From Eledone cirrhosa (taxonomy: Eukaryota), in NCBI GenBank assembly GCA_964016885.1, contig OZ024752.1, positions 37,138,001-37,202,000 on the forward strand: a DNA stretch of 64,000 nucleotides. The letters are read 5' to 3'. The number at the start of each line of letters is the position of its first letter. Within the stretch, counting starts at the first letter, position 1. Below are positions 4,643-56,210 of this stretch, piece by piece. A program made the translations under genes and the position numbers. The notes beneath the pieces were generated by a model. That model worked only from the letters and a program-made list of their open reading frames with translations. It was not told the DNA's origin and did not search any database.

Positions 4643-4959
4643 CTGTTTCCATTCGTCTTTTAAACTGTTAATACTATCTGTCGGTCGCAACTCCAGGCAG
4701 AAGAAGCAGCGTGAAATAAAGAGTCTTGCTCAAGGAGATAACGCATCGCCCGGTCTGGGAATCGAAATCGAAATCTCATTACTTCATCTGCTTGGATATA
4801 TATATATATATATACATATATTATATATATATATAATATACATATATTATATATATATATAATATATGTATTATATATATATATAATATATGTATATTAT
4901 ATATATATATAATATATGTATATTATATATATAATATACATATATTATATATATATATA

Positions 4960-5122
4960 ATTGTTTCTACTTTAGGCACAAGGCCAGCAATTAACCAGTA
5001 CATTACTGGTACTTTATTTTATCGACCCCGTAAGGATGAAAGGCAAAGTTAACCTCGGCGGGATTTGAACTCAGACTGTAAAGGGACGTAACTATGCTAG
5101 AAAGCATGGCGTCCGACCCTCT
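4960..5122 (-). mobile_element. tRNA-derived SINE (major family), partial
   Basis: Reverse complement of B-box GAGTTCAAATCC and family core ACTTTGCCTTTCATCCTTACGGGGTCGATAAAATAAAGTACCAG. Confidence 0.85.
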
Positions 5123-5866: not shown

Positions 5867-5904
<38 letters not shown>

Positions 5905-5916
5905 TTAATATAGATG

Positions 5917-5967
5917 AGATTCTACAGGACTAGAACTGTTTCATTCATTAGAAATCATCAGGAATCT
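5917..5967 (-). ncRNA. Type I hammerhead ribozyme motif (mirror copy)
   Basis: Reverse complement of 6142-6192. Confidence 0.75.
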
Positions 5968-6141
5968 GGGTATCAAAAAATAAAAATGGTATTTATAGGT
6001 CTCTACAAGTGGTAGGAGAGGGCGGGGAGTGGGATGGGTGTAGGTCATTGGTTGATAGAAATGACCTACACCCATCCCACTCCCCGCCCTCTCCTACCAC
6101 TTGTAGAGACCTATAAATACCATTTTTATTTTTTGATACCC

Positions 6142-6192
6142 AGATTCCTGATGATTTCTAATGAATGAAACAGTTCTAGTCCTGTAGAATCT
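6142..6192 (+). ncRNA. Type I hammerhead ribozyme motif
   Basis: AGATTC-CTGATGA-T(TTC TAAT GAA)T-GAAA-CAG TTCTAGTC CTG-TA-GAATCT: stem I, conserved core, stems II and III, GUA cleavage triplet. Confidence 0.78.
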
Positions 6193-6274
6193 CATCTATA
6201 TTAAAACTTTTATACTCTGCTATGTATTGAGTACCTTACTTACTGTGGTTACCTCCGATTCAACCCGGAATAAC

Positions 6275-6321
<47 letters not shown>

Positions 6322-6455
6322 CATATATATCTATATCTATATATAAATATGTATCTATATATGCATATGTACATATATATATACATGCATATCTCATATC
6401 TATATACATATGCATATATATATGTATCTATATATGCATATCTATATATGCATAT

Positions 6456-6557
<102 letters not shown>

Positions 6558-6679
6558 GTTATTCCGGGTTGAATCGGAGGTAACCACAGTAAGTAAGGTA
6601 CTCAATACATAGCAGAGTATAACAGTTTTAATATAGATGAGATTCTACAGGACTAGAACTGTTTCATTCTTTAGAAATA

Positions 6680-6720
<41 letters not shown>

Positions 6721-6723
<3 letters not shown>

Positions 6724-7036
6724 TCCCATAAGAAACAGAGGATCAGTGTTGCGACGAATACAATTTATTAGACATATTACAATCGTTTCTCTGGCGACCA
6801 GCTCGAGGCACGATCGATGTAATGATAGAACCTGACTCTGAAATCGCAAGGTCCTCAGATACGTCTCGATCGTGCCTCGAGCTGGTCGCCAGAGAAACGA
6901 TTGTAATATGTCTAATAAATTTTATTCGTCGCAACACTGATTCTCCGTTTTTTTATGTGATATCATACTCTGCTCTGTAAGAGCATCGAGTGCTCAAACG
7001 GCCTACCGCTTACGGACGCTTTAAGCATCCCACACC

Positions 7037-14959: not shown

Positions 14960-15225
14960 ACGGAAGATGATGTGGTTGAGAGGGAGAGGAAGAGCAAGGC
15001 CACAGCTTGAGATCGGTGTGGAAGTCGGACCTTCGTAAAGACCTGAAAATCCGCCTCTTCGTTGCTTGTAGTGGAATCTGTGCTGCTGTACGGGTCTGAG
15101 ACTTGGACACTGACCAAGAAACTCATTCAGATGGTGGATGGGTGCTACACGAGAATGCTGAGGATGGCTCTGAACATTAATCAGTATACACTGAGGATGA
15201 AAAACTCAGAGCTGTATGGGAGAAC
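14960..15225 (+). pseudogene. Degraded RTE/RTEX-type LINE fragment
   Basis: Translation ...VESVLLYGSETWTLTKKLIQMVDGCYTRMLRMALNI, the post-RT LLYGxETW motif. Confidence 0.75.
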
Positions 15226-15636: not shown

Positions 15637-15795
15637 ATATATGTGTCTGTCTGTGTGTGTGTGTGTACATATATAAACATATATATATGTGTGTGTGTGT
15701 ATAGATATATATATACATATAAATACATATATAAATTTATAAACACGCACACATATATATATAGTTACATATATAAATTTATAAACATATATATG

Positions 15796-15840
<45 letters not shown>

Positions 15841-15936
15841 CACATATTGTTATACATATTCAAGTACAGACACACATATACACACAGAAACTGTTTGTTA
15901 GTAAACATACACACAATAACTAAATCAGTTCTGGTA

Positions 15937-15987
15937 TACATACATACATGATGGCTGCCCCCTCGTTATCGAGTATGGCCATTGCAC
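15937..15987 (-). mobile_element. RTE-type 3' terminus (hairpin plus (TATG)n tail), probably the detached end of the 28281-32233 RTE
   Basis: GCAATGGCCATACTCGATAACGAGGGGGCAGCCATCA(TGTA)n with hairpin CTCG-ATAA-CGAG. Identical copy at 33792-33830; similar ends at 3157 and 32531. Confidence 0.65.
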
Positions 15988-16006
15988 AAAAAAAAAAAAA
16001 AAAAAA

Positions 16007-16053
<47 letters not shown>

Positions 16054-16313
16054 TTTCTTTATTAACCACAAGGGTTTACATAAAGTAGACATTAAGGACA
16101 GTGCAGGACAATGCAGGACGGTACAAATGGGCATTTCTGCGTGTAAAAAAACAAAAACAGAGGATGTAACAAAAATAACAATGAAAATAACAATGAAAAA
16201 TTCCCCAATAGGGGGGAGACTTCGGAGAGACATTTGTGGAGAAAGCCCAGTAAAAAGCCACAATGACCCTGACCACCAAGGCAAGTGCCCTCTCCCAGTT
16301 TTCCACCTTTAGT

Positions 16314-19300
16314 TTACAGATATATACTCAGAGTCGGCCCATTCACTCGGGCCATTCTTGCTTCTCTCACCCATCTTTCAACAAAATGCTGGGAAGAGAG
16401 CACTTCCTTCTCTACTCTGATTTTCCTTTTCAAATGAAATTTGAAAAAGTCAATCAGAGCATCACCGAAGAGGTAAGTGCTCGTCTTCAGCCCTTTCAAA
16501 CGTGTCCACCATACTATCTCTTTCGCCATGGCCACCAGACAGATAAAAACTGCCTGCCCTTCCCGGCTAAAGGAGGAGGGCGGGGCAATCCTCACGATAG
16601 ACTCAGATGATAACTGGATCCGTCCTAAACGCGACAGCAGGTGTTCGACATAAACCCACAAGTCAGCAATTTTCGGACACTGGACGAGTGCGTGCAGGAC
16701 GGTTTCGTCGCCCTGCGCGCATCTCGGACATGCCCGGCTGACGGCACCTCCATGCCTGTAGAGTTTATCCCGAACTGGCAAGGCTCCTCGGTAGCACTGC
16801 CAGGCCAGAGATTTCTGGAAGTTGTCCATAGGCCCCGGCCCGAAAGTTCTTCCGAAGAGATTGGCTAGTTGATTTTCGTCGACGCCTAGAGTTTCCCCAA
16901 GTACGTCGTCGCTCTTCCCCTCCACTAATCCTCTATAGAACGCCGAGGTGGAGTTTCCACCGATCACATTGCCCGATTGGTCGAGGGCTGTGAGCGCCTG
17001 AAGACATTCCAGTCTCCAGGCGCTCCCTCTCGGTCTTCGCTTGACCCAGGACTGCAGCTCCGTCAAGGAAACGAGCTGGGGAAAAACGCGTCTAGCAAAC
17101 GGCGACCACACCTGATCACCGTCGAGGAAGAGGTGGAGATGTCGTAGCCTGAGCGCGTGCCTGCGCATCATCAGCCACGGCATGCCCAGCCCTCCACGTA
17201 GCGGGTGTTGACAACAGATGGACCGCCTGACCATCGGAGCACGTCCCTTCCACAAAAAGCGAAAGAGCAAACGCTCCAGCGCAGTCAGGCGAGGCTTAGG
17301 ACAAGGTACGACGGTTAGGCGGTAGCAGATGACAGACGCGATGTACGCGTTAGCCACCTCCGCTCGACCTTTCAGGGATAGCTTCCTCTCCGCCCATTTC
17401 TGGGTGAGAGAAGCCACCCTGCTCGTCACCTCGTCCCAGTTTTTGTCCGTCTGGAGGTCCGGACCGAACCAGACCCCTAGCAATTTAACCGGTCCGTCCG
17501 TCCAGCGCCCGACGACGCTGTTGGACGGCATGGACCTGCCTCTCCAGGTGCCGAGCTGCAGGCCCACTGACTTTTCCTGGTTGATCATTGCTCCTGTCAC
17601 CGCTTCGTATTCTCTTAGTGTAGTGCCGATCGCCTCGATGTGTTTGGCGTTCGACACCACTACGGTGACATCGTCCGCATATGCTGACACGGATCTTCCG
17701 CATCCTAGTTCGCGCGGGACTCCCCTCAACGTCTCCAGTTTGTGCAGTAATGGCTCGAGAGTCAATACGTACAAGAGGGACGAGAGGGGACATCCTTGGC
17801 GGACCGAGCGCATGATGTTGAACGGTTCCGACAGGTGACCGTTCACTCTCACCACAGAGCAGATGTCGCTGTGCATGGCAGCGATCCAGCCTCTGAAGAC
17901 GGGCCCAAAGCCAGCCGCCCTCAGGACTGCCGCTAGGTAACGATGGTCGACCCTATCGAAAGCTTTCGACTGATCTAAATTGATCAAGGACCCACCCGTG
18001 CCAGGTTCCCTAGCTACCCTCTCTACGATGTATCGCATGAGGTGGAGGTTGTCGTGGATGGATCTGTCGGGAATGGCGCATGTCTGCGCCTCTCCCACCA
18101 GACCACCAACGACAAGCGCCAACCTCTTTGCTAGCACCTTGGCCAAAATCTTAAACTCTGTGTTTAGCAGAGTTATGGGCCGGAAATTGTCTATGTTATC
18201 CCCCTTGTTCGGATCCTTTCTCAGCAGTGCCACCGCTCCTCGGCTCACAGAACTGGGAATTCTCCCGTTCTGTTGCCAGTTGCAGTAGACGTCCGCCAAG
18301 AGGCCTCCGAACAAGTCTGGCATCTGTACGTAAAGTTCATAGGGCAGACCATCCAAACCAGGCGATTTACCCCTTGTGCAGCCAGTCATTGCCTCCCTTA
18401 CTTCAGCGGCTGTTATCGGCTTTTCGCAACACTTCGCCTCAGTGGCCGAGAGCCGCGGCAGTCCGTCGAGGTAGACACTAAAGTCCATCCCTCTACCCGG
18501 CCCCCCGCTGCCCCCGAACAGCTGAGCGAAGTGTCGCTGAAAAGCTTCACACATTTGCCCGGGATCGAGTAGCATGCGCCCGTCGTGGTCCACCAAAGAC
18601 CGGATCGTGGCTTTGTTGCCACGACGCGCCTCCGCCACTCGGGCCCATTGAACGGCTTTCGTCCCCTCGTGTCTGAGAGCACGCACCCTAGCTCTGACAA
18701 CGCAGCCTTCGTGCTTTGCATTGAAGAATTGGTCAAGGGCCAATTTCGCCGCAAGCACGTCGGTCGCAATGCCTTTGCTAAGCGCCTCGTCTAATTTTCT
18801 AACTAGTTCTCCCTCTGCTCTATTTTTCTCTATTGCTAAAGCCTTACTAAACCTAATCGATTCTATTCTAATCGCTCTTTTCAGAGCAAACCACCACTTG
18901 TTGTTGACGATGGCCCCCGTCAACGCCCGCTTAACTAGTTCGCTAATCCGGTCTCTGTAGGCCTTGCGCGCTGGTAAGGACGCGTTTAGCTTCCAGTAGC
19001 CGGGTCCTCGTCTATGAAGCCTATCTAAGTCAAGCACACAGATCACGAATTTGTGGTCCGTGTAGCTGACTATCTTGAATTGTGGACAGCCTATGCTAGA
19101 CCTATCTATTTCCCTACAAAATACTCTATCTAGATATGATCTGGATGACCCTATGCGGTTTGTCCAAGTCCACATTGGCACATTCGGGAAATCCAATCGG
19201 TACCTGTCAGACAGTTCAAAACGCCTGAGCAGGTTGGTGAGGCTCTTGCACCCTCCACCCCTATCCGCTAATCCCACACAGTCCCAGCGTGCATCTAAGA

Positions 19301-19733
19301 TCCCGTTCCAGTCGCCCACTAACACTAAAGAGCGCGACGTTCCAAGAAAGGTCTCCAGACGCCGGAAGAAATCAGGCCGCCCTGCTCCTGTCGGGGCATA
19401 GACGGCCACTAGCCTGAAAGCTTGCCCGTCTCCGCTGGTCACGTCCAGCACCACCAGCTTACCCTCTGGGTCCAGGAAGATGGCCCGTATGGCGAGATCC
19501 AAACCTCTCCGAAAAAGCACAGCAACTCCTCCACCCGATCCAGGACGGCTGGGAGATGCGTACACATCGTAGCCGCCGAAGATCGGTGCGAAGGCCCGTG
19601 CTTCGGAGATTCTGGTCTCGCTGATGGCCACTACATCTATGTTTAGTGACCTGAGGTCGTTGAGCAGGTGACCCTGCTTCCATGACGACCCCAAGCCACG
19701 CGCATTTATGCTGCCTATTCTGAGTGAGGTCAT
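16314..19733 (-). CDS. Tx1 ORF2: APE endonuclease, reverse transcriptase, C-terminal zinc knuckle (intact, 1139 aa)
   Basis: SINARG, GDWN, YLDRVF and YTDH (APE); PGLDG, DQSKAFDRV, QGCPLS and YADD (RT); CPRC-x8-H-x4-C. Confidence 0.95.
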   Translation of the reverse strand: MTSLRIGSINARGLGSSWKQGHLLNDLRSLNIDVVAISETRISEARAFAPIFGGYDVYASPSRPGSGGGVAVLFRRGLDLAIRAIFLDPEGKLVVLDVTSGDGQAFRLVAVYAPTGAGRPDFFRRLETFLGTSRSLVLVGDWNGILDARWDCVGLADRGGGCKSLTNLLRRFELSDRYRLDFPNVPMWTWTNRIGSSRSYLDRVFCREIDRSSIGCPQFKIVSYTDHKFVICVLDLDRLHRRGPGYWKLNASLPARKAYRDRISELVKRALTGAIVNNKWWFALKRAIRIESIRFSKALAIEKNRAEGELVRKLDEALSKGIATDVLAAKLALDQFFNAKHEGCVVRARVRALRHEGTKAVQWARVAEARRGNKATIRSLVDHDGRMLLDPGQMCEAFQRHFAQLFGGSGGPGRGMDFSVYLDGLPRLSATEAKCCEKPITAAEVREAMTGCTRGKSPGLDGLPYELYVQMPDLFGGLLADVYCNWQQNGRIPSSVSRGAVALLRKDPNKGDNIDNFRPITLLNTEFKILAKVLAKRLALVVGGLVGEAQTCAIPDRSIHDNLHLMRYIVERVAREPGTGGSLINLDQSKAFDRVDHRYLAAVLRAAGFGPVFRGWIAAMHSDICSVVRVNGHLSEPFNIMRSVRQGCPLSSLLYVLTLEPLLHKLETLRGVPRELGCGRSVSAYADDVTVVVSNAKHIEAIGTTLREYEAVTGAMINQEKSVGLQLGTWRGRSMPSNSVVGRWTDGPVKLLGVWFGPDLQTDKNWDEVTSRVASLTQKWAERKLSLKGRAEVANAYIASVICYRLTVVPCPKPRLTALERLLFRFLWKGRAPMVRRSICCQHPLRGGLGMPWLMMRRHALRLRHLHLFLDGDQVWSPFARRVFPQLVSLTELQSWVKRRPRGSAWRLECLQALTALDQSGNVIGGNSTSAFYRGLVEGKSDDVLGETLGVDENQLANLFGRTFGPGPMDNFQKSLAWQCYRGALPVRDKLYRHGGAVSRACPRCAQGDETVLHALVQCPKIADLWVYVEHLLSRLGRIQLSSESIVRIAPPSSFSREGQAVFICLVAMAKEIVWWTRLKGLKTSTYLFGDALIDFFKFHLKRKIRVEKEVLSSQHFVERWVREARMARVNGPTLSIYL

Positions 19734-19768
19734 GTTTAAAATAGAGTGGAAAAGATGGGAAAGACCAC

Positions 19769-21869
19769 TTACCGTATTTTTGGTAGAGGAGGGATGGTTT
19801 TTACATCCCTTTTCACTTGATCGTCTGGTGAAGGGACCGTTGAATCGTCCCTTCGGCTGGTCGTCGGCTCTTCTAAGAGAATGTCTGAATATACTCTTCG
19901 ATTAATGGTTCCTCCTAGGTCCCTGAAATCACCAACTGCGTTGGGGAATTTCGTTTTAATGTTTGTGTATTGTTTCTGTGCTATTTTTAGCAGTCTTATG
20001 TTAGTTGGCGTTTTGATTGGTGCTGGTATTATGTAGTCCTGTTGTGAAATGTCTGTGTGTTCAATTATGTAAGTCATTAGTTTCTTGTTGTGTGTGTTTA
20101 TTGCCGTGCATTTGTTTTTCTGGGGGTGGGGTGTGGTTCTGCTATTTTCTTGTCGTTGTTGCTGGGTGTGTGTGTTTTGTTGTTGTGTTTGCGATGTTGG
20201 TGCTTGTGGTGGTGGTGTTGAAGGTGTTGTTGGCGGTGGGGTTGTCGCCGGTGGTGATGGTGGTGCTGGTGTGGGTGGTGATGGTGTTGGTGGTGTTGCT
20301 GCTGTGGGTCTCTTTGCAGTAGACTTTACCCTTTTCTCATTTCTTTCCTCCCTTTTCAAAGGCGACGATGCGCTGCTTCTGCGTTTGTGCCTTCTTGAGA
20401 CCTTTTGCCATCCCTCTCCCACCTCACACTCCATGTCTGATTCTGTAAGGTCGGGGAGGGGTACCAGCTCCACTCTTTCACTTGTTGTTGTTGGTGATGT
20501 TTGCACTGGAGTCTCTGTTGCAGCTGCATTTGGTATTGCTGTTGTTGTTGTTAATATTTCCACTGCTGCTGCTGTCTTTGATTTCCGTGGAGTGGGTATG
20601 GGTGCCACGGACCTATCGTTCCTGGTTGCCGCTTGTCCTGTTGCTGGTAGCCGTGGAACCGGATTCGGGAGGAGGGGGGTTTTCTCCTTTCTCAGGGTCT
20701 TCTCGTTGCAGAAGGCCCTGAGGTGAGTCTTCGATCCACAGCGAAAGCATTTCGGGCGTTTGCCCTCAACACTTATGGGCAGTTGAGTGCCGTTATCGAA
20801 GTCTATCACATCCGGGATAGCTTCGATGCACTCCTAGTTGGTTTGTATTAGCATCTCAATGGAGGAGCCGACCCAATCTTCTCTTACTTTTTTCTGTACT
20901 TGCAGTACAGTTGTTTTGTCCTCGATTCCGACGAGGACAGACGCGGCCAGCCAAGAAGGGGTCATTCCGGGGGGGACGTGGGTCAGTTTGACCCTCACAA
21001 TTTTTTTGCCCGCAGTAGGAGGGCACCAACACCATTTCCTCGCTCCTTAGGGTCACTACTGATTGGGCCTTTGCCTCCTGGGGTGTGGCAAAAAGTACGT
21101 CTACGGTGGCGTATTTTTTGCCTCGGGTGATGTGCGTTTTCCTCTGCCACACAGACCCCAAGGCTTTTTGTATTTGGGCCTCTGTGGCTCTTTCCACCCT
21201 ACGGGATTTTGTACTTACTGTACGGTACGTGACCGTACAGTGCTCTTGGGTTTCGAAAAAATTTTTCGCTGCCTTGCAGATTGCTCGGTGTCCGTTCTTT
21301 GTCACCATCTTCTTCGCTTCCTCTAATTCCTCATTTGTTATGAGGATTGTTTCCAGGTTTTTCGCAATACCTGCAAATGAGATTGGTTTTTCTCTGCTGT
21401 TGTTGTTGTCGTCAGAGCTGCTGGTACTTTTGTTGTTGCTGCAGGTACTACGACTACTGCCTCCGCCGCTGTTGCTGTGGTTGTTGTTGGTGTTGCTGCT
21501 GCTAATGGTGTTGTTGTTTATGCTGCTGGTGATGCTGTTGCGGCTGCTACTGTTGTTTTCATTGTCACTGTTGCTGTTGTTATTACGGCTGCTACTGCTA
21601 TTATTCCTGACGTCAGACGAATGAACTGGGTTTTCGTATTTCCCGCACACCTGTTTCGTCGCTGTCGTCGTCGTCGTGGAGAAACCTTGCACGCTTTGCA
21701 CGAGACTTTTCTTTTCTTTCGTCGCTTGCGAAAGAGAAGGTAGGGAGAGAGACACATTTAAAGAAGGGAGGGAGAGAGACAATCTTCTCTCTCCTGTAGT
21801 GATGATTGAGGAAGAAGAAGACGGAATGAGTGGGAGTGACGTATGAAATTTTTTTTTTTTGGTAGCCAT
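19769..21869 (-). pseudogene. Tx1 ORF1 of copy 1, disrupted
   Basis: Relative to copy 2: +1 T in the run at ~21001-21007 (frameshift) and a CAG>TAG stop near 20835. Confidence 0.85.
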
Positions 21870-22372
21870 GTTTTTTTGTTTAAAATGAAATTTTGGGTAC
21901 AAAACCCCAATAACTGGTTATTTAACCCCGAAGGGCCAAATAACGGACAGAAAGACCCCTCTCACGAGGAGGAGGGTGTCTTTATCAACAATTTGGTTCA
22001 AGTTTTAAGCAATTTACAATTGTTTTAACGGTTAAAAATTACTATACCTTACAGAGCCGAGCCTCCGTCAACCATGGCATTCAATAATAATAATAATAAT
22101 AATAATAATGATTTCTTTATTAACCACAAGGGTTTACATAAAGTAGACATTAAGGACAGTGCAGGACAATGCAGGACAGTACAAATGGGCATTTCTGCGT
22201 GTAAAAAAAACAAAAACAGAGGATGTAACAAAAATAACAATGAAAATAACAATGAAAAATTCCCCAATAGGGGGGAGACTTCGGAGGGACATTTGTGGAG
22301 AAAGCCCAGTAAAAAGCCACAATGACCCTGACCACCAAGGCAAGTGCCCTCTCCCAGTTTTCCACCTTTAGT

Positions 22373-25300
22373 TTACAGATATATACTCAGAGTCGGCCCA
22401 TTCACTCGGGCCATTCTTGCTTCTCTCACCCATCTTTCAACAAAATGCTGGGAAGAGAGCACTTCCTTCTCTACTCTGATTTTCCTTTTCAAATGAAATT
22501 TGAAAAAGTCAATCAGAGCATCACCGAAGAGGTAAGTGCTCGTCTTCAGCCCTTTCAAACGTGTCCACCATACTATCTCTTTCGCCATGGCCACAGATAA
22601 AAACTGCCTGCCCTTCCCGGCTAAAGGAGGAGGGCGGGGCAATCCTCACGATAGACTCAGATGATAGCTGGATCCGTCCTAAACGCGACAGCAGGTGTTC
22701 GACATAAACCCACAAGTCAGCAATTTTCGGACACTGGACGAGTGCGTGCAGGACGGTTTCGTCGCCCTGCGCGCATCTCGGACATGCCCGGCTGACGGCA
22801 CCTCCATGCCTGTAGAGTTTATCCCGAACTGGCAAGGCTCCTCGGTAGCACTGCCAGGCCAGAGATTTCTGGAAGTTGTCCATAGGCCCCGGCCCGAAAG
22901 TTCTTCCGAAGAGATTGGCTAGTTGATTTTCGTCGACGCCTAGAGTTTCTCCAAGTACGTCGTCGCTCTTCCCCTCCACTAATCCTCTATAAAACGCCGA
23001 GGTGGAGTTTCCACCGATCACATTGCCCGATTGGTCGAGGGCTGTGAGCGCCTGAAGACATTCCAGTCTCCAGGCGCTCCTTCTCGGTCTTCGCTTGACC
23101 CAGGACTGCAGCTCCGTCAAGGAAACGAGCTGGGGAAAAACGCGTCTAGCAAACGGCGACCACACCTGATCACCGTCGAGGAAGAGGTGGAGATGTCGTA
23201 GCCTGAGCGCGTGCCTGCGCATCATCAGCCACGGCATGCCCAGCCCTCCACGTAGCGGGTGTTGACAACAGATGGACCGCCTGACCATCGGAGCACGTCC
23301 CTTCCACAAAAAGCGAAAGAGCAAACGCTCCAGCGCAGTCAGGCGAGGCTTAGGACAAGGTACGACGGTAAGGCGGTAGCAGATGACAGACGCGATGTAC
23401 GCGTTAGCCACCTCCGCTCGACCTTTCAGGGATAGCTTCCTCTCCGCCCATTTCTGGGTGAGAGAAGCCACCCTGCTCGTCACCTCGTCCCAGTTTTTGT
23501 CCGTCTGGAGGTCCGGACCGAACCAGACCCCTAGCAATTTAACCGGTCCGTCCGTCCAGCGCCCGACGACGCTGTTGGACGGCATGGACCTGCCTCTCCA
23601 GGTGCCGAGCTGCAGGCCCACTGACTTTTCCTGGTTGATCATTGCTCCTGTCACCGCTTCGTATTCTCTTAGTGTAGTGCCGATCGCCTCGATGTGTTTG
23701 GCGTTCGACACCACTACGGTGACATCGTCCGCATATGCTGACACGGATCTTCCGCATCCTAGTTCGCGCGGGACTCCCCTCAACGTCTCCAGTTTGTGCA
23801 GTAATGGCTCGAGAGTCAATACGTACAAGAGGGACGAGAGGGGACATCCTTGGCGGACCGAGCGCATGATGTTGAACGGTTCCGACAGGTGACCGTTCAC
23901 TCTCACCACAGAGCAGATGTCGCTGTGCATGGCAGCGATCCAGCCTCTGAAGACGGGCCCAAAGCCAGCCGCCCTCAGGACTGCCGCTAGGTAACGATGG
24001 TCGACCCTATCGAAAGCTTTCGACTGATCTAAATTGATCAAGGACCCACCCGTGCCAGGTTCCCTAGCTACCCTCTCTACGATGTATCGCATGAGGTGGA
24101 GGTTGTCGTGGATGGATCTGTCGGGAATGGCGCATGTCTGCGCCTCTCCCACCAGACCACCAACGACAAGCGCCAACCTCTTTGCTAGCACCTTGGCCAA
24201 AATCTTAAACTCTGTGTTTAGCAGAGTTATGGGCCGGAAATTGTCTATGTTATCCCCCTTGTTCGGATCCTTTCTCAGCAGTGCCACCGCTCCTCGGCTC
24301 ACAGAACTGGGAATTCTCCCGTTCTGTTGCCAGTTGCAGTAGACGTCCGCCAAGAGGCCTCCGAACAAGTCTGGCATCTGTACGTAAAGTTCATAGGGCA
24401 GACCATCCAAACCAGGCGATTTACCCCTTGTGCAGCCAGTCATTGCCTCCCTTACTTCAGCGGCTGTTATCGGCTTTTCGCAACACTTCGCCTCAGTGGC
24501 CGAGAGCCGCGGCAGTCCGTCGAGGTAGACACTAAAGTCCATCCCTCTACCCGGCCCACCGCTGCCCCCGAACAGCTGAGCGAAGTGTCGCTGAAAAGCT
24601 TCACACATTTGCCCGGGATCGAGTAGCATGCGCCCGTCGTGGTCCACCAAAGACCGGATCGTGGCTTTGTTGCCACGACGCGCCTCCGCCACTCGGGCCC
24701 ATTGAACGGCTTTCGTCCCCTCGTGTCTGAGAGCACGCACCCTTGCTCTGACAACGCAGCCTTCGTGCTTTGCATTGAAGAATTGGTCAAGGGCCAATTT
24801 CGCCGCAAGCACGTCGGTCGCAATGCCTTTGCTAAGCGCCTCGTCTAATTTTCTAACTAGTTCTCCCTCTGCTCTATTTTTCTCTATTGCTAAAGCCTTA
24901 CTAAATCTAATCGATTCTATTCTAATCGCTCTTTTCAGAGCAAACCACCACTTGTTGTTGACGATGGCCCCCGTCAACGCCCGCTTAACTAGTTCGCTAA
25001 TCCGGTCTCTGTAGGCCTTGCGCGCTGGTAAGGACGCGTTTAGCTTCCAGTAGCCGGGTCCTCGTCTATGAAGCCTATCTAAGTCAAGCACACAGGTCAC
25101 GAATTTGTGGTCCGTGTAGCTGACTATCTTGAATTGTGGACAGCCTATGCTAGACCTATCTATTTCCCTACAAAATACTCTATCTAGATATGATCTGGAT
25201 GACCCTATGCGGTTTGTCCAAGTCCACATTGGCACATTCGGGAAATCCAATCGGTACCTGTCAGACAGTTCAAAACGCCTGAGCAGGTTGGTGAGGCTCT

Positions 25301-25787
25301 TGCACCCTCCACCCCTATCCGCTAATCCCACACAGTCCCAGCGTGCATCTAAGATCCCGTTCCAGTCGCCCACTAACACTAAAGAGCGGGACGTTCCAAG
25401 AAAGGTCTCCAGACGCCGGAAGAAATCAGGCCGCCCTGCTCCTGTCGGAGCATAGACGGCCACTAGCCTGAAAGCTTGCCCGTCTCCGCTGGTCACGTCC
25501 AGCACCACCAGCTTACCCTCTGGGTCCAGGAATATGGCCCGTATGGCGAGATCCAAACCTCTCCGAAAAAGCACAGCAACTCCTCCACCCGATCCAGGAC
25601 GGCTGGGAGATGCGTACACATCGTAGCCGCCGAAGATCGGTGCGAAGGCCCGTGCTTCGGAGATTCTGGTCTCGCTGATGGCCACTACATCTATGTTTAG
25701 TGACCTGAGGTCGTTGAGCAGGTGACCCTGCTTCCATGACGACCCCAAGCCACGCGCATTTATGCTGCCTATTCTGAGTGAGGTCAT
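22373..25787 (-). pseudogene. Tx1 ORF2 of copy 2, frameshifted near the C-terminus
   Basis: 5-nt deletion near 22594 (GCCACCAGACAGATA vs GCCACAGATA) gives 1088 aa with an aberrant tail; APE, RT and knuckle are retained. Confidence 0.85.
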
Positions 25788-25822
25788 GTTTAAAATAGAG
25801 TGGAAAAGATGGGAAAGACCAC

Positions 25823-27919
25823 TTACCGTACTTTTGGTAGAGGAGGGATGGTTTTTACATCCCTTTTCACTTGATCGTCTGGTGAAGGGACCGTTGAATC
25901 GTCCCTTCGGCTGGTCGTCGGCTCTTCTAAGAGAATGTCTGAGTATACTCTTCGATTGATGGTTCCTCCTAGGTCCCTGAAATCACCAACTGCGTTGGGG
26001 AATTTCGTTTTAATGTTTGTGTATTGTTTCTGTACTATTTTTAGCAGTCTTATGTTAGTTGGCGTTTTGATTGGTGCTGGTATTATGTAGTCCTGTTGTG
26101 AAATGTCTGTGTGTTCAATTATGTAAGTCATTAGTTTCTTGTTGTGTGTATTTATTGCCGTGCATTTGTTTTTCTGGGGGTGGGGTGTGGTTCTGCTATT
26201 TTCTTGTCGTTGTTGCTGGGTGTGTGTGTTTTGTTGTTGTGTTTGCGATGTTGGTGCTTGTGGTGGTGGTGTTGAAGGTGTTGTTGGCGGTGGGGTTGTC
26301 GCCGGTGGTGATGGTGGTGCTAGTGTGGGTGGTGATGGTGTTGGTGTTGTTGCTGCTGTGGGTCTCTTTGCAGTAGACTTTACCCTTTTCTCATTTCTTT
26401 CCTCCCTTTTCAAAGGCGACGATGCGCTGCTTCTGCGTTTGTGCCTTCTTGCGACCTTTTGCCATCCCTCTCCCACCTCACACTCCATGTCTGATTCTGT
26501 GAGGTCGGGGAGGGGTACCAGCTCCACTCTTTCACTTGTTGTTGTTGGTGATGTTTGCACTGGAGTCTCTGTTGCAGCTGCATTTGGTATTGCTGTTGTT
26601 GTTGTTAATATTTCCACTGCTGCTGCTGTTTTTGATTTCCGTGGCGTGGGTATGGGTGCCACGGACCTATCGTTCCTGGTTGCCGCTTGTCCTGTTGCTG
26701 GTAGCCGTGGAGCTGGATTCGGAAGGAGGGGGGTTTTCTCCTTTCTCAGGGTCTTCTCGTTGCAGAAGGCCCTGAGGTGAGTCTTCGATCCACAGCGAAA
26801 GCATTTCGGGCGTTTGCCCTCAACACTTATGGGCAGTTGAGTGCCGTTATCGAAGTCTATCACATCCGGGATAGCTTCGATGCACTCCTGGTTGGTTTGG
26901 ATTAGCATCTCAATGGAGGAGCCGACCCAATCTTCTCTTACTTTTTTCTGTACTTGCAGTACAGTTGTTTTGTCCTCGATTCCGATTAGGACAGACGCGG
27001 CCAGCCAAGAAGGGGTCATTCCGGGGGGGACGTGGGTCAGTTTGACCCTCACAATTTTTTGCCCGCAGTAGGAGGGCACCAACACCATTTCCTCGCTCCT
27101 TAGGGTCACTACTGATTGGGCCTTTGCCTCCTGGGGTGTGGCAAAAAGTACGTCTACGGTGGCATATTTTTTGCCTCGAGTGATGTGCGTTTTCCGCTGC
27201 CACACAGACCCCAAGGCTTTTTGTATTTGGGCCTCTGTGGCTCTTTCCACCCTACGGGATTTTGTACTTACTGTACGGTACGTGACCGTACAGTGCTCTT
27301 GGGTTTTGAAAAATTTTTCCGCTGCCTTGCAGATTGCTCGGTGTCCGTTCTTTGTCACCATCTTCTTCGCTTCCTCTAATTCCTCATTTGTTATGAGGAT
27401 TGTTTCCAAGTTTTTCGCAATACCTGCAAATGAGATTGGTTTTTCTCTGCTGTTGTTGTTGTCGTCAGAGCTGCTGGTACTTTTGTTGTTGCTGCAGGTA
27501 CTACGACTACTGCCTCCGCCGCTGTTGCTGTGGTTGTTGTTGGTGTTGCTGCTGCTAATGCTGTTGTTGTTTATGCTGCTGGTGATGCTGTTGCGGCTGC
27601 TACTGTTGTTTTCATTGTCACTGTTGCAGTTGTTATTACGGCTGCTACTGCTATTATTCCTGACGTCAGACGAATGAACTGGGTTTTCGTATTTCCCGCA
27701 CACCTGTTTCGTCGCTGTCGTCGTCGTCGTGGAGAAACCTTGCACGCTTTGCACGAGACTTTTCTTTTCTTTCGTCACTTGCGAAAGAGAAGGGAGGGAG
27801 AGAGACACATTTAAAGAAGGGAGGGAGAGAGACAATCTTCTCTCTGCTGTAGTGATGATTGAGGAAGAAGAAGACGGAATGAGTGGGAGTGACGTATGAA
27901 ATTTCTTTTTCGTAGCCAT
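25823..27919 (-). CDS. Tx1 ORF1 (nucleic-acid-binding protein), intact, ~698 aa from the first ATG
   Basis: Ser/Asn-rich N-terminus, probable RRM-like middle region, CCHC knuckle CFRCGSKTHLRAFC, Pro/Thr-rich linker; ends 35 nt before ORF2. Confidence 0.88.
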   Translation of the reverse strand: MATKKKFHTSLPLIPSSSSSIITTAERRLSLSLPSLNVSLSLPSLSQVTKEKKSLVQSVQGFSTTTTTATKQVCGKYENPVHSSDVRNNSSSSRNNNCNSDNENNSSSRNSITSSINNNSISSSNTNNNHSNSGGGSSRSTCSNNKSTSSSDDNNNSREKPISFAGIAKNLETILITNEELEEAKKMVTKNGHRAICKAAEKFFKTQEHCTVTYRTVSTKSRRVERATEAQIQKALGSVWQRKTHITRGKKYATVDVLFATPQEAKAQSVVTLRSEEMVLVPSYCGQKIVRVKLTHVPPGMTPSWLAASVLIGIEDKTTVLQVQKKVREDWVGSSIEMLIQTNQECIEAIPDVIDFDNGTQLPISVEGKRPKCFRCGSKTHLRAFCNEKTLRKEKTPLLPNPAPRLPATGQAATRNDRSVAPIPTPRKSKTAAAVEILTTTTAIPNAAATETPVQTSPTTTSERVELVPLPDLTESDMECEVGEGWQKVARRHKRRSSASSPLKREERNEKRVKSTAKRPTAATTPTPSPPTLAPPSPPATTPPPTTPSTPPPQAPTSQTQQQNTHTQQQRQENSRTTPHPQKNKCTAINTHNKKLMTYIIEHTDISQQDYIIPAPIKTPTNIRLLKIVQKQYTNIKTKFPNAVGDFRDLGGTINRRVYSDILLEEPTTSRRDDSTVPSPDDQVKRDVKTIPPLPKVR

Positions 27920-28280
27920 GTTGTTTTTTTGTTTAAAATGAAATTTTGGGTACAAAACCCCAATAACTGGTTATTTAACCCCGAAGGGCCAAATAACGGA
28001 CAGAAAGACCCCTCTCACGAGGAGGAGGGTGTCTTTATCAACAATTTGGTTCAAGTTTTAAACAATTTACAATTGTTTTAACGGTTAAAAATTACTATAC
28101 CTTACAGAGCCGAGCCTCCGTCAACCATGGCATTCAATAATAATAATAATAATAATAATAATAGCAATAATAATAATAACGACAACAACAATAATAATAT
28201 ACATATTCATATATATATACACACACACGCACGCACGCAAGCATACCTACACACACACACACACAAACACACGATAGCAA

Positions 28281-31200
28281 CTAACAGTGCTGCGATCGAA
28301 TGTGGCTTTTTAGCCCAGCCAATGACCCAAAATGTCTTGCACAGAGTCGGCAACCAAAACATTTACTGGGAATAGTCGGCTGTGGTTGGAGTTCGTGTAC
28401 TTTTGCATGTCGCTTGAGTCCTCCTGCTGATTTACATTCTCTACCACATGTTTGGCAAGCATGATGAGTAGCATCTCCAACAGCAGCCTGGTAGTCAACC
28501 ACTGGTCTTACTTTATGACTGCGAAGATGACTTTCGAGTCCAGCTTTGCTTAGGCAGAGTCTCGCACAGACGCTGCATGTCAGAAACATAGGAGGACCCT
28601 CGCCGTCTGGAAGTGCAACAGCAATACCCTTCCTCACGTCCCGCTTTACTTTCTCGTGTGCGATTCGAGATGCCTCAAAGGCAACTTTTCCCTCATATAC
28701 AGTCTTTCTCCATTTATTACGATCAGCAGCAATATTTTCCCATGTATCAGCAGAGATGTTAGCGTCTTTCAGAGAGGCCTTCAAGGAATCCTTATACCTC
28801 TTTTTTGGTTTATGTGGCGGTCGTTTTCCTTTAACCAACTCTCCATAGAAGAGTTGTTTTGGTATTCTAGAATCCTTCATCCTGGCAAGGTGACCACTCC
28901 AACGGAGTCGCTGCTTAAGCACAAGAGCTTCTATACTGTCACACATAGAGCTTTCCAAAATCTCGACATCACTGATGTGGTCCCTCCAGCGAACGCCATG
29001 TATCCGTCTGAGACACATCTGATGGAAACGCTCCAATTGCTTAAGGTGGCGTCGATATGTGACCCAGGTCTCGCAGGCATAAAGAAGACAAGAGAGTACA
29101 CATGCCCTGTACACCCTTACCTTTGTCCTCCTGCATATGTCTCGCCGACCCCAGAGTCGCCTTTCTAGCTTTCCGAAAGCATCACTTGCTTTCCTAATCC
29201 TAAGTGAGATTTCACTGTCAAGGTTGCCGTATCGATTGACAGTGCTTCCCAGGTAGACAAACTGATCAACCACTCCAAGTCGTTTGCCATACACATAGAT
29301 GTTTGGTTCAGTGTACTGCCTACCAGGTGCAGGTTGGTACATGACGACGGTTTTCTTGAGACTGACAGTCAAACCCAGGGCAGTGCAAGCGTCAGAAAAT
29401 ACATTCAAAATGTGCTGCATATCACTCTCTGTGTGCGCTACAAGATCGCAATCATCTGCATACAAGAGGTCTCTTATGACTGATGTAAATACTTTTGTCT
29501 TCGCAGCAAAGCGCCTGATGTTAAATATGCTGCCTGAGGTTCGATATCGGATGTAAACACCATGCTCGCAATTCCTGAATGCAATACAGAAAACCATTGC
29601 AAAGTATATGGCAAACAGGGTCGGTGCTGGAATATCCCCCTGTTTCACTCCATTTTTTACTGAGATAGGCTCCGACATGTTACCTCCGACATTAACCCAA
29701 GCCTTCATGTCGTCATGGAAAGACCTAACTAAAGCAAGGAACTTATCAGGGCAACCAAGTTTCTGGAGAACCTTCCATAATGCATCTCTGTTGACAGTAT
29801 CGAAAGCCTTTGTCAGATCGACAAAAACCTGATACAGATCCAAGCCCTGTTCAATGCACTTCTCCTGGAGCTGTCTAGCTGAGAAGATCATATCAGTAGT
29901 GCCGCGTCCAACACGAAAACCAGATTGACTTTCAGGAAGGACACAATCTGCAATGTGTGTCAGCAGACGGTCCAGAAGCACCCTACATAAAACTTTCCCC
30001 ACGACAGAAAGCAATGATATACCTCTGTAGTTCCCACAATCATTCCTGTTACCCTTTCCCTTGTACAAGACCACCATTACTGCATCTCTCCAGTCCTCAG
30101 GCACGGATTCATTAGCCCATATCCTTCCAAACAGAGAGTGAAGATGTTGCAGGAGTCTCTCACCACCATATTGTAGGAGCTCAGCATGTATGCCATCCAT
30201 ACCTGGAGATCTTCCACTGTTCAGCTTCGAAATAGCCACTGCAACCTCCACAAGTGTCGGAGGCTCTGCGAGAGCTACTTTCACAGGACTTTCCGGAATG
30301 AGATTGAGGAAATCTTCACTGACGACAGACGGCTGATTCAAAAGATCATCAAAGTGCTCCCGCCACCTTCGTAGAATTCCCTGTGAGTCACGAAGAAGTT
30401 CTTTGCTATCCTTGCTGCGAATCGGTGTCACCAGAGAAGAAGACGGTCCATAAACCTCACGCAAGAGACTGTACAACAGCTTTGTGTTATTGCAATCAGA
30501 CGCAGTTTGTATCTCACCAGCCTTCTCACTCCACCACTGATCCTTCATCTGAGAAAGACTCCGCCTAACACGTGATTTTACATCCCTGAGCTCCTCGTGC
30601 AACGTATTCCTCTCCTGTGGTCTTGCCGTCAAGTAGCGTGACAGAGCGCGCCTCTTATCAGCCAACAAGTCATCTATATGCACATCTTTCTCATTAAACC
30701 AGTCCTGATGTTTTCTCTGCACCAATCCCAGAACACGTCTGCCTACATCATAAACCGACTTTTTAAGGGTCGGCCAATCCTCACCAAGATCTGCAGCCTG
30801 CATCTCTTCTTCCAATGTCCTCTTCACATTTTTATCCTTAAGACGAGCAGCATTCAATCTTTTGGGCAGGGTAACACCAGGAGCCCGGATTTTACGTTTG
30901 GTGATTAGATTCACTTTTGCGCGTACCAGGCGGTGGTCCGTCCAGCACTCAGCTCCACGAAGAACACGAACACACCGCACATCCTGTCTGTCACGCATCC
31001 TGACTAGGACGTAGTCCAAAAGATGCCATTCCTTAGATGCAGGATGCATCCATGTGGTCTTGAATTTGTTCTTTTGTTGGAACATGGTGTTGGTAACACA
31101 CAGATCCAGCTCCTCACACATCTGCAGCAAGAGCATACCATTGCTGTTACACTTTCCCACCCCATGCCTTCCGATTACATTCCATGTGTTAAAATCCCTA

Positions 31201-31826
31201 CCCACTCTAGCATTAAAGTCACCAAGCACGATGACTTTGTCTGCCTGAGGGATATTTCTTAAAACACCTTTCAAGGCATGGTAAAAGGACAGTTTTTCTT
31301 CATCGACAGAATTCATAGTTGGAGCATACACACTCACCAGGGTAGCATATCTTCCCTTGTCCAGCGGAACTCTCATGGACATAAGACGCTCACTAATCCC
31401 CACTGGGAATTCTTCCAATTTATTCACCAGTACAGTCTTAACAGCAAATCCTACCCCAGCCTCTCTTCTGGTTCCTTCATCTCTTCCTTTCCAGAAGAAT
31501 GTATATTCTCCACAAAATTCCGTAAGATGACCATCTCCAGCTAACCTCGTCTCAGACAAAGCCACGATGTCAAGATCGTAACGTCGAAGCTCCTTCGCAA
31601 CAAGAGCGGTCCTTCGTTCAGGACGCTCCAAAGAATCCCTGTCAAGCAGCGTCCGTACGTTCCAGCAGCCAAGACTAAATGCCCTGTTTGGCTCTATTAC
31701 AATGGCACGATGACGGGCGGGCCCAGGTTGTGATAACTTGGGGCCCCTGCCCTTATTGCCAATGATCTTTTTTGTTCCAGAACCCAAATTGGCAATTATC
31801 TCGTTTACATTGTTCTGGAACATCAT
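28281..31826 (-). CDS. RTE-clade LINE protein: APE, RT and three C2H2 zinc fingers (intact, 1181 aa)
   Basis: WNVRTL, GDFNAR and WTDH (APE); DLTKAFD, GVKQG and YADD (RT); LLYACETW; fingers CSVC..HLRSH, CQTC..HAKVH, CRLC..HIRSQH. Confidence 0.95.
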   Translation of the reverse strand: MMFQNNVNEIIANLGSGTKKIIGNKGRGPKLSQPGPARHRAIVIEPNRAFSLGCWNVRTLLDRDSLERPERRTALVAKELRRYDLDIVALSETRLAGDGHLTEFCGEYTFFWKGRDEGTRREAGVGFAVKTVLVNKLEEFPVGISERLMSMRVPLDKGRYATLVSVYAPTMNSVDEEKLSFYHALKGVLRNIPQADKVIVLGDFNARVGRDFNTWNVIGRHGVGKCNSNGMLLLQMCEELDLCVTNTMFQQKNKFKTTWMHPASKEWHLLDYVLVRMRDRQDVRCVRVLRGAECWTDHRLVRAKVNLITKRKIRAPGVTLPKRLNAARLKDKNVKRTLEEEMQAADLGEDWPTLKKSVYDVGRRVLGLVQRKHQDWFNEKDVHIDDLLADKRRALSRYLTARPQERNTLHEELRDVKSRVRRSLSQMKDQWWSEKAGEIQTASDCNNTKLLYSLLREVYGPSSSLVTPIRSKDSKELLRDSQGILRRWREHFDDLLNQPSVVSEDFLNLIPESPVKVALAEPPTLVEVAVAISKLNSGRSPGMDGIHAELLQYGGERLLQHLHSLFGRIWANESVPEDWRDAVMVVLYKGKGNRNDCGNYRGISLLSVVGKVLCRVLLDRLLTHIADCVLPESQSGFRVGRGTTDMIFSARQLQEKCIEQGLDLYQVFVDLTKAFDTVNRDALWKVLQKLGCPDKFLALVRSFHDDMKAWVNVGGNMSEPISVKNGVKQGDIPAPTLFAIYFAMVFCIAFRNCEHGVYIRYRTSGSIFNIRRFAAKTKVFTSVIRDLLYADDCDLVAHTESDMQHILNVFSDACTALGLTVSLKKTVVMYQPAPGRQYTEPNIYVYGKRLGVVDQFVYLGSTVNRYGNLDSEISLRIRKASDAFGKLERRLWGRRDICRRTKVRVYRACVLSCLLYACETWVTYRRHLKQLERFHQMCLRRIHGVRWRDHISDVEILESSMCDSIEALVLKQRLRWSGHLARMKDSRIPKQLFYGELVKGKRPPHKPKKRYKDSLKASLKDANISADTWENIAADRNKWRKTVYEGKVAFEASRIAHEKVKRDVRKGIAVALPDGEGPPMFLTCSVCARLCLSKAGLESHLRSHKVRPVVDYQAAVGDATHHACQTCGRECKSAGGLKRHAKVHELQPQPTIPSKCFGCRLCARHFGSLAGLKSHIRSQHC

Positions 31827-31895
31827 TGAATTGGGAAAAAAAAAAAAAAAAAAAAAAAAAAAGGGAGAAAAAAAAAAAAAAAAAAAGTAATAATA

Positions 31896-31930
<35 letters not shown>

Positions 31931-32233
31931 ACACTATTAATAATTATTAATGCACTCGTGCAATGCCTGTGCGTGACGAATATTTTTAAAGTGAGGAAAG
32001 ACTGTGCACTGAACCAATCCCACTCTCTGAGCGACAGTAGCTATAACCCGAAAAGAAGAAAAGATCAACATCATCGGTAACTACTGAGCCGCAGGTTTTA
32101 TATCGGAGTTAACCCAGTTTCCTGAGATGCCTTCTCCTAGAAGAATACCCTGACATGGGCTAGGGGTTCTTCACTCCCAGTGGTTTAACTGCGCGATCGG
32201 GCATCCAGCCCGATTATTTCTATGTCCCCGCGC
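31827..32233 (-). mobile_element. 5' UTR of the RTE element, interrupted by poly(T)/(TTA) tracts
   Basis: 31960-32184 aligns with the body of the 600-bp elements (CAATGCCTGTGC, TCCCACTCT, TCAACATCAT, CCTTCTCCTAGAA). Confidence 0.7.
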
Positions 32234-32489
32234 AAAAAAAAAAAAAAAAAAAAAATACTTATTGACACTTATACGTACGACATACACACACACGCATACA
32301 TATGCGTGCACACAGCAACACTCACACACACAACAAACACACACACACGCTACTCTACTCACTTACACGCACACACACACATATATATATATATATTACC
32401 GTCATTACTGATACAAGATTACCAGATTATGTCAACTGTTGACTTTCAAGAGTTTGTATAGTTGAAGCCGATCGTATTACAGTCCAGTA

Positions 32490-32520
<31 letters not shown>

Positions 32521-32530
32521 CATACATACA

Positions 32531-33125
32531 TGGTGGCCGCCAACTCGTTTTCGAGTACGGCCACTACTTTATATCCATGTAGGAGAACCCCTACCGATGC
32601 GCTGAACGAGTGTGACTTTTTAGTCCAGCCAGCGACTTGAAAACTCTGGTACAAACACTACACTTGTGACAATTATTGACACATAGTGCTGGGCCCATGG
32701 TACCATGTGACGACAAGTGCAGAGAGATCTCCAGATATAAAGCAATGCCTGTGCCGTGAAGCTTTTATAGTGAGCAAAGGTACTGCACAAAGCCAGTCCC
32801 ACTCTTTTAACCAAGATGATATTTACCAAAAAGAAGAACATGTCAACATCATTGGATACCATCAGAGTTGCAGGTGTTATATCAGAGTTTTCATTCTCCT
32901 AGAATTCTGCCTTGACAAAGGCTAAGGGGTCATCTCTCCCGGTGATTTTGGATGGTCATTGACTCTTAAGAGCTCCTTTGCCCTTTGACAGGTTTTGTTT
33001 TTAGTCCTGCAGGATGTCCAAAGTCACCCTCCTCACCAAGAAACCTTGCTGGGGTTGCCAGTTTAGTCGCCAACGACCCGACCATGAGACAGGTTGTACT
33101 GGGATACATGTTACCAGTAGCACCA
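32531..33125 (-). mobile_element. ~600-bp non-autonomous RTE-derived element, copy B
   Basis: Highly similar to 3157-3764, (CATA)n on both sides. Confidence 0.8.
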
Positions 33126-33248
33126 TACATACATACATACATACATACATACATACATACATACATACATACATACATACATACATACATACATACTCTA
33201 TTGGTAACAATTTGTGAAATTATAAAACCAGAAGATATAACACACATA

Positions 33249-33292
<44 letters not shown>

Positions 33293-33448
33293 CATACATA
33301 CATACACACATATTGTTATACATATTCAAGTACACACAGAAACTGTTTGTTAGTAAACACACACAATAACTAAATCAGTTCTGGTATACATACATACATA
33401 CATACATACATACATACATACATACATACATACATACATACATACATA

Positions 33449-33733
33449 CAAATCCAGTATCCAAGATACACCTTTAGCTTCATACCCATCATTATTGGTG
33501 CTACGGGTTATATACCAACCCGCCTGGACCAAAGTATGACTGAACTTGGATTTGCGGACAAAAAGCGCGGCTCCCTAATTCATAGTCTACAAATGGCTGC
33601 GATAGCTGGCACCTTCAAAATTTGCAAAACATTCTTGCGATTCAAGGGATGACAATTTCTTTTCTTTTACAACCTTGCCACCCGGAAGGTGGCCGGTCAA
33701 AAAAATATACTCGAAATTAAGAGAAAGAGAAAA
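33449..33733 (+). mobile_element. 5'-truncated restriction-like-endonuclease LINE (R4/Dong-like) inserted in (CATA)n
   Basis: 33449-33652 reads [67 protein letters not shown], followed by a short 3'UTR with hairpin GCCACC-CGGAA-GGTGGC. Absent from the paralogous site near 15940. Confidence 0.7.
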
Positions 33734-34344
33734 CATACATACATACATGCATGCATACATACATGCATGCATGCATACATACATACATACATGATGGCTG
33801 CCCCCTCGTTATCGAGTATGGCCATTGCACAAGAAAAAAAAAAAAATAAAATAAATAAAAAAAATAAAAAAAAAAAAATTAAAAAAATAATAATAATAAT
33901 AAATAAATAAATAAATAAATAAATAAAAAAAAAAGAAATATACATACATACATACATACATACATACAATATATATATATATATAAATGAAAGGTATAGA
34001 AATTGTTGTATTCAGTATTCCATTATTGTATAAACATTATTCCATAACAGGAATATATATATATGTATATATATATATTTGTTCAACGAATCTGTTGCAA
34101 TTAAGAGATCGATGGCAGAAATTGAACTTCCAATATTTTGGTTTCTAGTAGGATACAATGTGATTGAATTGTAAACGTTTTTATTAGTTTGTTGATTTCC
34201 CTAGGGCGAGAAATGTTCAGTAAAATATGGCTAATAAATCTATGTACGCCACCTGGTTCTTTATCATGAATTTAGATTATAGCTACATGTCTATATGTTG
34301 AGATGCATGTGTGTTTATATATGCACTAGTATACGCATGTGTGT

Positions 34345-56207: not shown

Positions 56208-56210
<3 letters not shown>

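Follow-up and report, generated by a model that had tools for sequence, protein, structure and literature searches.

Several families of long interspersed nuclear elements (LINEs) of the Tx1 type are found at microsatellites, with Kibi at (TC)n, Koshi at (TTC)n and crocodilian families at (TTCC)n and (TTTC)n, and a family is called microsatellite-specific when the same repeat is present in >20% of its flanks (PMC4494074). Other Tx1 families target transposons, such as Xenopus Tx1L in Tx1D, Tx1-Mar in Mariner-N4_AMi, Tx1-9_AMi in Harbinger and others in piggyBac, while Tx1-8_Crp and Tx1-4_AMi target long terminal repeat (LTR) retrotransposons (PMC4494074). Tandem insertion of a target-specific element occurs occasionally (PMC4640811). 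RTE elements generate microsatellites through 3'-partial copies (PMC2887409), and in RTE-2_OV of Octopus vulgaris a microsatellite starts where the open reading frame (ORF) stops and fills most of the 3' untranslated region (UTR) (PMC9115989). The recent insertions in O. vulgaris include 421 L1-Tx1 and 182 RTE, and Dong-R4 is also listed there as recently active (PMC13282606, Table 1). Here we describe a locus in a 64,000-nt window of Eledone cirrhosa (GCA_964016885.1, contig OZ024752.1, 37,138,001-37,202,000; all positions below are window positions), where an RTE-type LINE and two Tx1-like LINEs lie together on the minus strand.

Anatomy of the nested locus

The locus likely consists of two full-length 6-kb LINEs of the L1 group nested in the 3'UTR microsatellite of an intact RTE. 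An earlier sequence-only reading of this DNA gave the order as 5'UTR, RTE ORF, repeat, copy 2, (TTA)9, copy 1, tract and terminus, and we found every element where that reading had placed it (Table 1). It also proposed a single RTE, with 12 kb of Tx1 splitting its 3'UTR. This is well supported by indirect evidence, namely a second terminus free of Tx1-like sequence, 600-bp elements in which the end of the ORF adjoins the terminus, and the microsatellite 3'UTR of RTE-2_OV (PMC9115989). Taking together all of the readings that accept one split RTE, we consider it very probable.

The terminus beyond the inner copies is probably the RTE's own 3' end, based on the second terminus, the 600-bp elements, RTE-2_OV and a direct repeat that brackets the unit. 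The second terminus, which the sequence-only reading overlooked, is identical over 33774-33830 and includes an identical 39-nt core at 33792-33830. The tract in front of it is 82% T, includes (TTA)5 and has no Tx1-like sequence, which ties the TTA/T tract to the terminus and not to the inner elements. In our view this segment is likely a copy from this RTE family, truncated at its 5' end. The likeness of the terminus to the ends of the 600-bp elements, already noted from the sequence, amounts to 89% and 87% identity over 46 nt, and the core has local scores of 41 and 36 against these elements and at most 22 elsewhere in the window. The two 600-bp elements are 96% identical to each other, and both are flanked by (TATG)n. 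Each is built of an RTE-like 5'UTR part, the last C2H2 finger with the stop, about 28 nt and a homologous terminus. The finger and stop are homologous to the end of the RTE ORF (zf-C2H2 E 1.1e-4, which is below the curated cut-off), and the RTE 5'UTR at 31960-32186 is 68% identical to the 5' part of both elements. By read depth, this 600-bp derivative is highly abundant.

The direct repeat, U and U', has a core with 0 substitutions and 2 small indels, which scores 105, and no other place in the window scores more than 27. U is located about 1 kb upstream of the apparent RTE 5' end and U' directly after the RTE tail. Each repeat is about 110-150 nt and is composed of (TATG)n, a 70-nt core that is unique in the window, and (TA)n. 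The pair may be an unusually long target-site duplication, in which case the insertion would have included about 1 kb of additional 5' DNA, or it may be a dispersed repeat. RTE-1 of C. elegans reportedly makes long target duplications; our literature search for long RTE-1 target duplications found no paper.

The sequence-only reading also saw a hairpin in the terminus. The pairing is possible, but its stability is not above that of shuffled sequences (z -0.65); the hairpins of the 600-bp elements are more stable than shuffles (z -5.2 and -3.8). In the terminus stem-loop, pairing holds in 36 of 36 cells, and of the 9 pairs 1 is compensatory; this was matched by 86 of 500 shuffles and is not significant. 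An exact-pattern scan of metagenome contigs with the terminus gave 0 matches.

We classify the outer element as RTE-type by its architecture; its homologues are almost all unnamed. It has the single ORF with an apurinic/apyrimidinic endonuclease (APE) and a reverse transcriptase (RT) that marks the RTE clade, and (TATG)n follows four of four termini, which would be the short-tandem-repeat 3' end of that clade provided that the terminus is the RTE's own. The ORF has zero internal stops, matches Pfam RVT_1 (E 1.6e-30) and Exo_endo_phos (E 1.3e-11), and has its SET, GDFN, TDH and YADD motifs all intact. Since the closest homologues (50-63% identity) share both the N- and C-terminal motifs, we consider the ORF to be full length. 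A scan with the RTE protein gave 7 loci, all of them distant (22-36% identity). Searches of the ESM Atlas with both families returned only generic endonuclease-RT clusters without a clade name. None of the 26 Rfam matches reached the gathering score, most were miRNA models on microsatellites, and there were 0 ribozymes in the 5'UTRs. Immediately ahead of the start codon, the (TTA)n and long T runs of the 5'UTR mirror the 3'UTR tract.

Reads from 4 of 24 listed runs were placed on 22030-33995, and the joints (15 of 892) and loose ends (24 of 6794) that were listed include none at the repeat junctions. Contigs of run X4 differ from this RTE copy at 3 of 856, 4 of 1461 and 6 of 282 letters, and so few differences indicate that the RTE is young too.

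Each Tx1-like copy has one damaged ORF. In copy 2, ORF1 (25823-27919, 698 aa) is intact and carries a CCHC knuckle; ORF2, which begins at 25787, has a 5-nt gap near 22593 that shifts the frame after codon 1065. In copy 1, ORF1 is broken, with the frame shifting near 21006 and a stop codon near 20836, and ORF2 (16314-19733, 1139 aa) is intact with its endonuclease, RT and zf-RVT. The Pfam domains of ORF2 are Exo_endo_phos, RVT_1 and zf-RVT, and the endonuclease is an N-terminal APE. The elements therefore have the features of the L1 group, with two ORFs, the second of which encodes an APE endonuclease, an RT and a C-terminal zinc-binding motif. We place them in this group because a profile built from ORF2 together with 12 relatives fits human L1 ORF2p far better (E 9e-159) than R2 (E 1e-58).

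The named ORF2 matches are from Argonauta hians (58%) and a short piece of an Octopus sinensis protein, which points to a likely octopod host, and the ORF2 homology searches gave no protein named Tx1. NCBIfam gave only group II RT hits, all of them sub-threshold. Scanning viral contigs with ORF2 and genome contigs with the exact pattern of the Tx1-like 5' end gave 0 matches each. Two 3' ends like those of the Tx1-like element, at 3874 (minus) and 45667 (plus), share a CCCT-GTGG...AATAAA...GAAAT motif. They adjoin microsatellites of the TAG/GTC type and (TA)n, respectively, outside the RTE, and belong to related families at best, so their support for repeat targeting is weak.

Table 1. Parts of the nested locus and related features, in window positions.
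Feature	Position	Strand	Remarks
RTE 5'UTR	31827..32233	-	own (TTA)n + poly(T) 31931-31836; apparent 5' end at about 32233, with a T22 run ahead of it
Intact RTE-type ORF, 1181 aa	28281..31826	-	APE endonuclease, RT (YADD), three C2H2 zinc fingers
Proximal RTE 3'UTR, 145 nt	28136..28280	-	(TG)n, (TA)n, (TTA)n
Tx1-like LINE copy 2, 6026 nt	22110..28135	-	ORF1 intact, ORF2 frameshifted
(ATT)9 spacer between Tx1-like copies	22083..22109	-	target repeat and/or tail
Tx1-like LINE copy 1, 6031 nt	16052..22082	-	ORF1 broken, ORF2 intact
Distal part, presumed RTE 3'UTR	15988..16051	-	(TTA)14 + T21
RTE 3' terminus (probable)	15937..15987	-	39-nt core, possible stem-loop, (TATG)3 tail
Second terminus copy, Tx1-free	33774..33940	-	110-nt TTTA/TTA/T tract in front; (TATG)n flanks
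600-bp RTE-derived non-autonomous element	32491..33202	-	(TATG)n flanks; second copy 3117-3831
Direct repeat U'	15788..15950	-	directly after RTE tail; partner U at 33251-33400

Two probable insertions into one (ATT)n tract

The two Tx1-like copies are 99.0% identical, with 47 substitutions (31 transitions and 16 transversions) and 5 indels between them, and they are likely independent insertions. ORF2 has 10 synonymous differences and 2 that are non-synonymous (P 3e-5 in a binomial test that takes the share of synonymous sites as reference), and ORF1 has 15 of each (P 0.0013). This synonymous excess points to selection in active source lineages and not to decay after a duplication or to sequencing error. 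Among the 40 of 1480 variant rows listed, 11 are sites where the copies differ, and at 2 of these 11 both alleles are common in run X1, where the copy-1 allele is at 69% and 52%. We regard it as very unlikely that the dimer arose by one insertion followed by local tandem duplication, or that it is an assembly artefact in which two haplotypes or copies were stacked. The high identity, some indels in homopolymers, and the lack of any read or contig seen across the locus (in 4 runs, with the repeat junctions not covered) would fit such an origin. However, neither neutral decay nor sequencing error is expected to produce the synonymous skew, and two common family alleles were seen at 2 sites, although mis-stacking of two real copies stays compatible with both.

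Both 5' junctions consist of (ATT)n followed by the identical first bases of the Tx1-like element, and both 3' junctions consist of AATAAAGAAATC followed by (ATT)n. All four junctions are in one ATT|ATT phase, so excision of either element restores the phase of the repeat. A target-site duplication around either inner copy would be masked by the (ATT)n. The junctions hold (ATT)n only, and RTE-specific sequence is absent within 60 nt of them. In the account that we favour, and consider reasonably probable, target-primed insertion happened twice, each time aimed at the (ATT)n repeat and not at the RTE, which would often supply such targets.

The RTE would have inserted first, among clustered (TATG)n repeats. 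Next, the Tx1-like endonuclease would nick the bottom strand at AAT/AAT. This is a T/A step such as L1-group endonucleases cut, similar to the L1 consensus TTTT/A (PMC1291365), and the (AUU)n end of the Tx1-like RNA could pair with the freed (AAT)n primer. An insertion made this way would leave (ATT)n on either side, and the same tract would be open to a second copy. As the target is regenerated by insertion, the second hit can be explained without RTE-specific recognition. The RTE family likely spreads (TTA)n tracts, through both of its UTRs and its truncated copies, which would make it a frequent but non-specific host.

Runs of 5 or more perfect TTA units occur at 4 sites in the window (counting the occupied tract once). 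The RTE family accounts for 3 of them, one in the occupied 3'UTR, one in the 5'UTR (31900-31926) and one with the standalone terminus. With a minimum of 4 units, seven further sites are found outside the RTE family. The numbers are tiny, and they suggest that the RTE supplies many of the long (TTA)n targets, in line with the generation of microsatellites by RTE elements (PMC2887409). By read depth, the RTE and Tx1-like families are both abundant and both 3'-biased. The summed depth of the Tx1-like 3' half relative to the 3' end of the RTE ORF is 5.2x in X1 and 1.2x in X4, where depth is not copy number and includes related families. We also considered whether the RTE and Tx1 move together as a fixed composite, and we rejected this on the weak evidence that RTE 3' depth is higher than Tx1 5' depth in both X1 and X4.

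The insertions have consequences for the RTE. Each Tx1-like copy ends in a sense AATAAA, and these lie 12 kb and 6 kb before the RTE terminus. RNA that starts at the RTE would likely end at the first of these, 6 kb past the stop, without the RTE terminus. The sequence-only reading held that the RTE keeps both its ORF and its 3' recognition end, which is true of the DNA, but the RNA would likely end earlier. The loss of the 3' end from the RTE RNA likely follows from this predicted use of AATAAA, and this RTE copy is probably unable to copy itself with its own 3' end, despite its untouched ORF.

Competing explanations

The sequence-only reading suggested that a Tx1 family uses the RTE 3'UTR as a landing pad. 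The locus does not show this, as generic (ATT)n targeting accounts for both insertions. The stronger version, in which the family specifically targets the 3'UTR of this RTE through sequence context, chromatin or transcription and may use the RTE promoter for read-through, seems unlikely to us. It would fit with the same tract having been entered by two independent insertions, with three of the window's four long (TTA)n sites being RTE-family parts, and with the preference of some Tx1 families for other transposons, LTR retrotransposons among them (PMC4494074). On the other hand, the junctions are (ATT)n alone with nothing specific to the RTE nearby, a second hit is expected wherever a target regenerates itself, and the excess of Tx1-like depth in X1 nearly disappears in X4, which is weak evidence. 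If this version were true, an octopod Tx1-like family would be a dedicated parasite of an active RTE, with the RTE seeding (ATT)n pads through its UTRs and truncated copies and the Tx1-like element filling them in tandem, riding the RTE promoter and cutting the RTE RNA off from its own 3' recognition end. We doubt that it is such a dedicated parasite.

Two further explanations depart from target-primed insertion into the RTE's own (ATT)n. The RTE could end in its own (TTA)n tail at 28136, with the T-tract and terminus at 16051-15937 being a separate short insertion like that at 33774-33940, and the neighbours would be a pile-up within microsatellites and not one split element. A T/TTA-tract with a terminus does stand alone in the window, RTE 3'UTRs have been described as short, AT-rich trimer to pentamer repeats (PMC1291365), and elements with (TATG)n tails cluster in the region. 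Even so, we find this quite unlikely, because the sister 600-bp family has the end of its ORF running straight into a homologous terminus, the RTE ORF has no other recognisable end, and U/U' brackets the whole unit as it would a single insertion. Alternatively, the Tx1-like element could have a loose preference for AT-rich sequence or T/A steps, like ordinary L1, and have landed here twice through local accessibility. The genome is very rich in AT microsatellites, and the best named structural relative, human L1 ORF2p, has the loose target consensus TTTT/A (PMC1291365). However, both copies keep the ATT phase exactly and have pure (ATT)n to either side, and the (TA)n and (TATG)n tracts, which are far commoner in the window, hold no copy of the Tx1-like family, which makes a loose preference very unlikely.

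Several points weigh against two insertions aimed at (ATT)n within one RTE. Only one occupied site is known, and it holds both of the 2 of 2 Tx1-like copies that are in (ATT)n. The share of long TTA sites that derive from the RTE, 3 of 4, fits some coupling to the RTE, and, as the standalone terminus shows, this kind of end can also be present with no ORF. At nine of the 11 listed difference sites the copy 2 allele has at most 6% of the X1 depth, which taken alone also fits private mutation after a duplication. Read placement left out the repeats at 22030-22122 and 28130-28277, and hence the joint from ORF to terminus and the Tx1 flanks. Lastly, the inner elements are presumably Tx1, a label that comes from the sequence-only reading and rests on their architecture.

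Surrounding repeats and comparison with known systems

The same strand carries a cluster of (TATG)n-tailed elements at 33970-32490, and the RTE family itself sits in (TATG)n. A probable short (TATG)n-tailed element is found at 33450-33720 (minus), between the standalone terminus and U, and many X24 reads end near 33580. At 15000-15200 (plus) there is what looks by eye like a decayed C-terminal fragment of an RTE-type ORF; tblastn with the RTE protein gave no match there. An interspersed repeat of about 170-200 nt (85-95% identity) is present at 4950-5120 and about 25 more places, some as tandem or inverted pairs (e.g. 53550-53930). There are also two minisatellites, with a 24-nt unit repeated 69 times at 60237-61895 and a 31-nt unit repeated 25 times at 51664-52445. 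Palindromic MITE-like (miniature inverted-repeat transposable element) segments, some of which have a common terminal sequence, are at 4462-4609, 5901-6208, 6149-6683, 6721-6963 and 56208-56352.

At face value, this locus adds a probable (ATT)n-targeting family to the L1 group, and it gives the full anatomy of an octopod RTE 3' end, which is beyond the resolution of short-read work. Annotators should be warned that RTE 3'UTRs here are interrupted by microsatellites and nested LINEs. If most targets proved to be made by the RTE, one LINE would build the niche of another and be disabled by it, and if the dedicated parasite were real, this would be LINE-on-LINE targeting in which the host LINE manufactures the target. 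The former would bear on the transposon ecology of octopus genomes, which have an RTE with expression in the brain. The intact ORF2, whose target is apparently strict and simple, is also a candidate for work on endonuclease specificity.

Repbase Reports is the usual place where such families are described. Our literature search, with subscription papers and Repbase Reports mostly outside its coverage, found no (ATT)n-specific Tx1 family and no Tx1 family aimed at a LINE 3'UTR. Dong, of the R4 clade, is reportedly specific for (TAA)n, which is the same class of repeat as the target here. The Dong endonuclease is restriction-like and the Tx1-like element has an N-terminal APE endonuclease.

Kibi, Koshi and the crocodilian Tx1 families are like the elements here in their two-ORF L1-group build, APE endonuclease, and simple repeat on both sides. 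They differ in that the target here is (ATT)n, a unit that is not named in the available text of PMC4494074, the host is an octopod, and the repeat is inside another LINE. The transposon-targeting Tx1 families also have a Tx1-type element nested in another mobile element, but those families rest on many flanks, while here there is one site with plain microsatellite junctions. Since LTR-targeting Tx1 families have been published (PMC4494074), a retroelement that targets a retroelement is not new.

For the outer element, the description of RTE-2_OV (PMC9115989) is similar, with a single ORF that has an endonuclease, an RT and a C2H2 zinc finger. Compared by description only, RTE-2_OV has 1109 aa and UTRs of about 600 nt, and the RTE here has 1181 aa, a 5'UTR of about 407 nt and a 3'UTR of about 260 nt once the inner copies are excised. 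The RTEs described in PMC2887409 have frequent 3'-partial copies with simple repeats, like our probably truncated copy with the second terminus. In those elements the repeat is the very 3' end, whereas here it is an internal 3'UTR repeat that has become the target of a second LINE.

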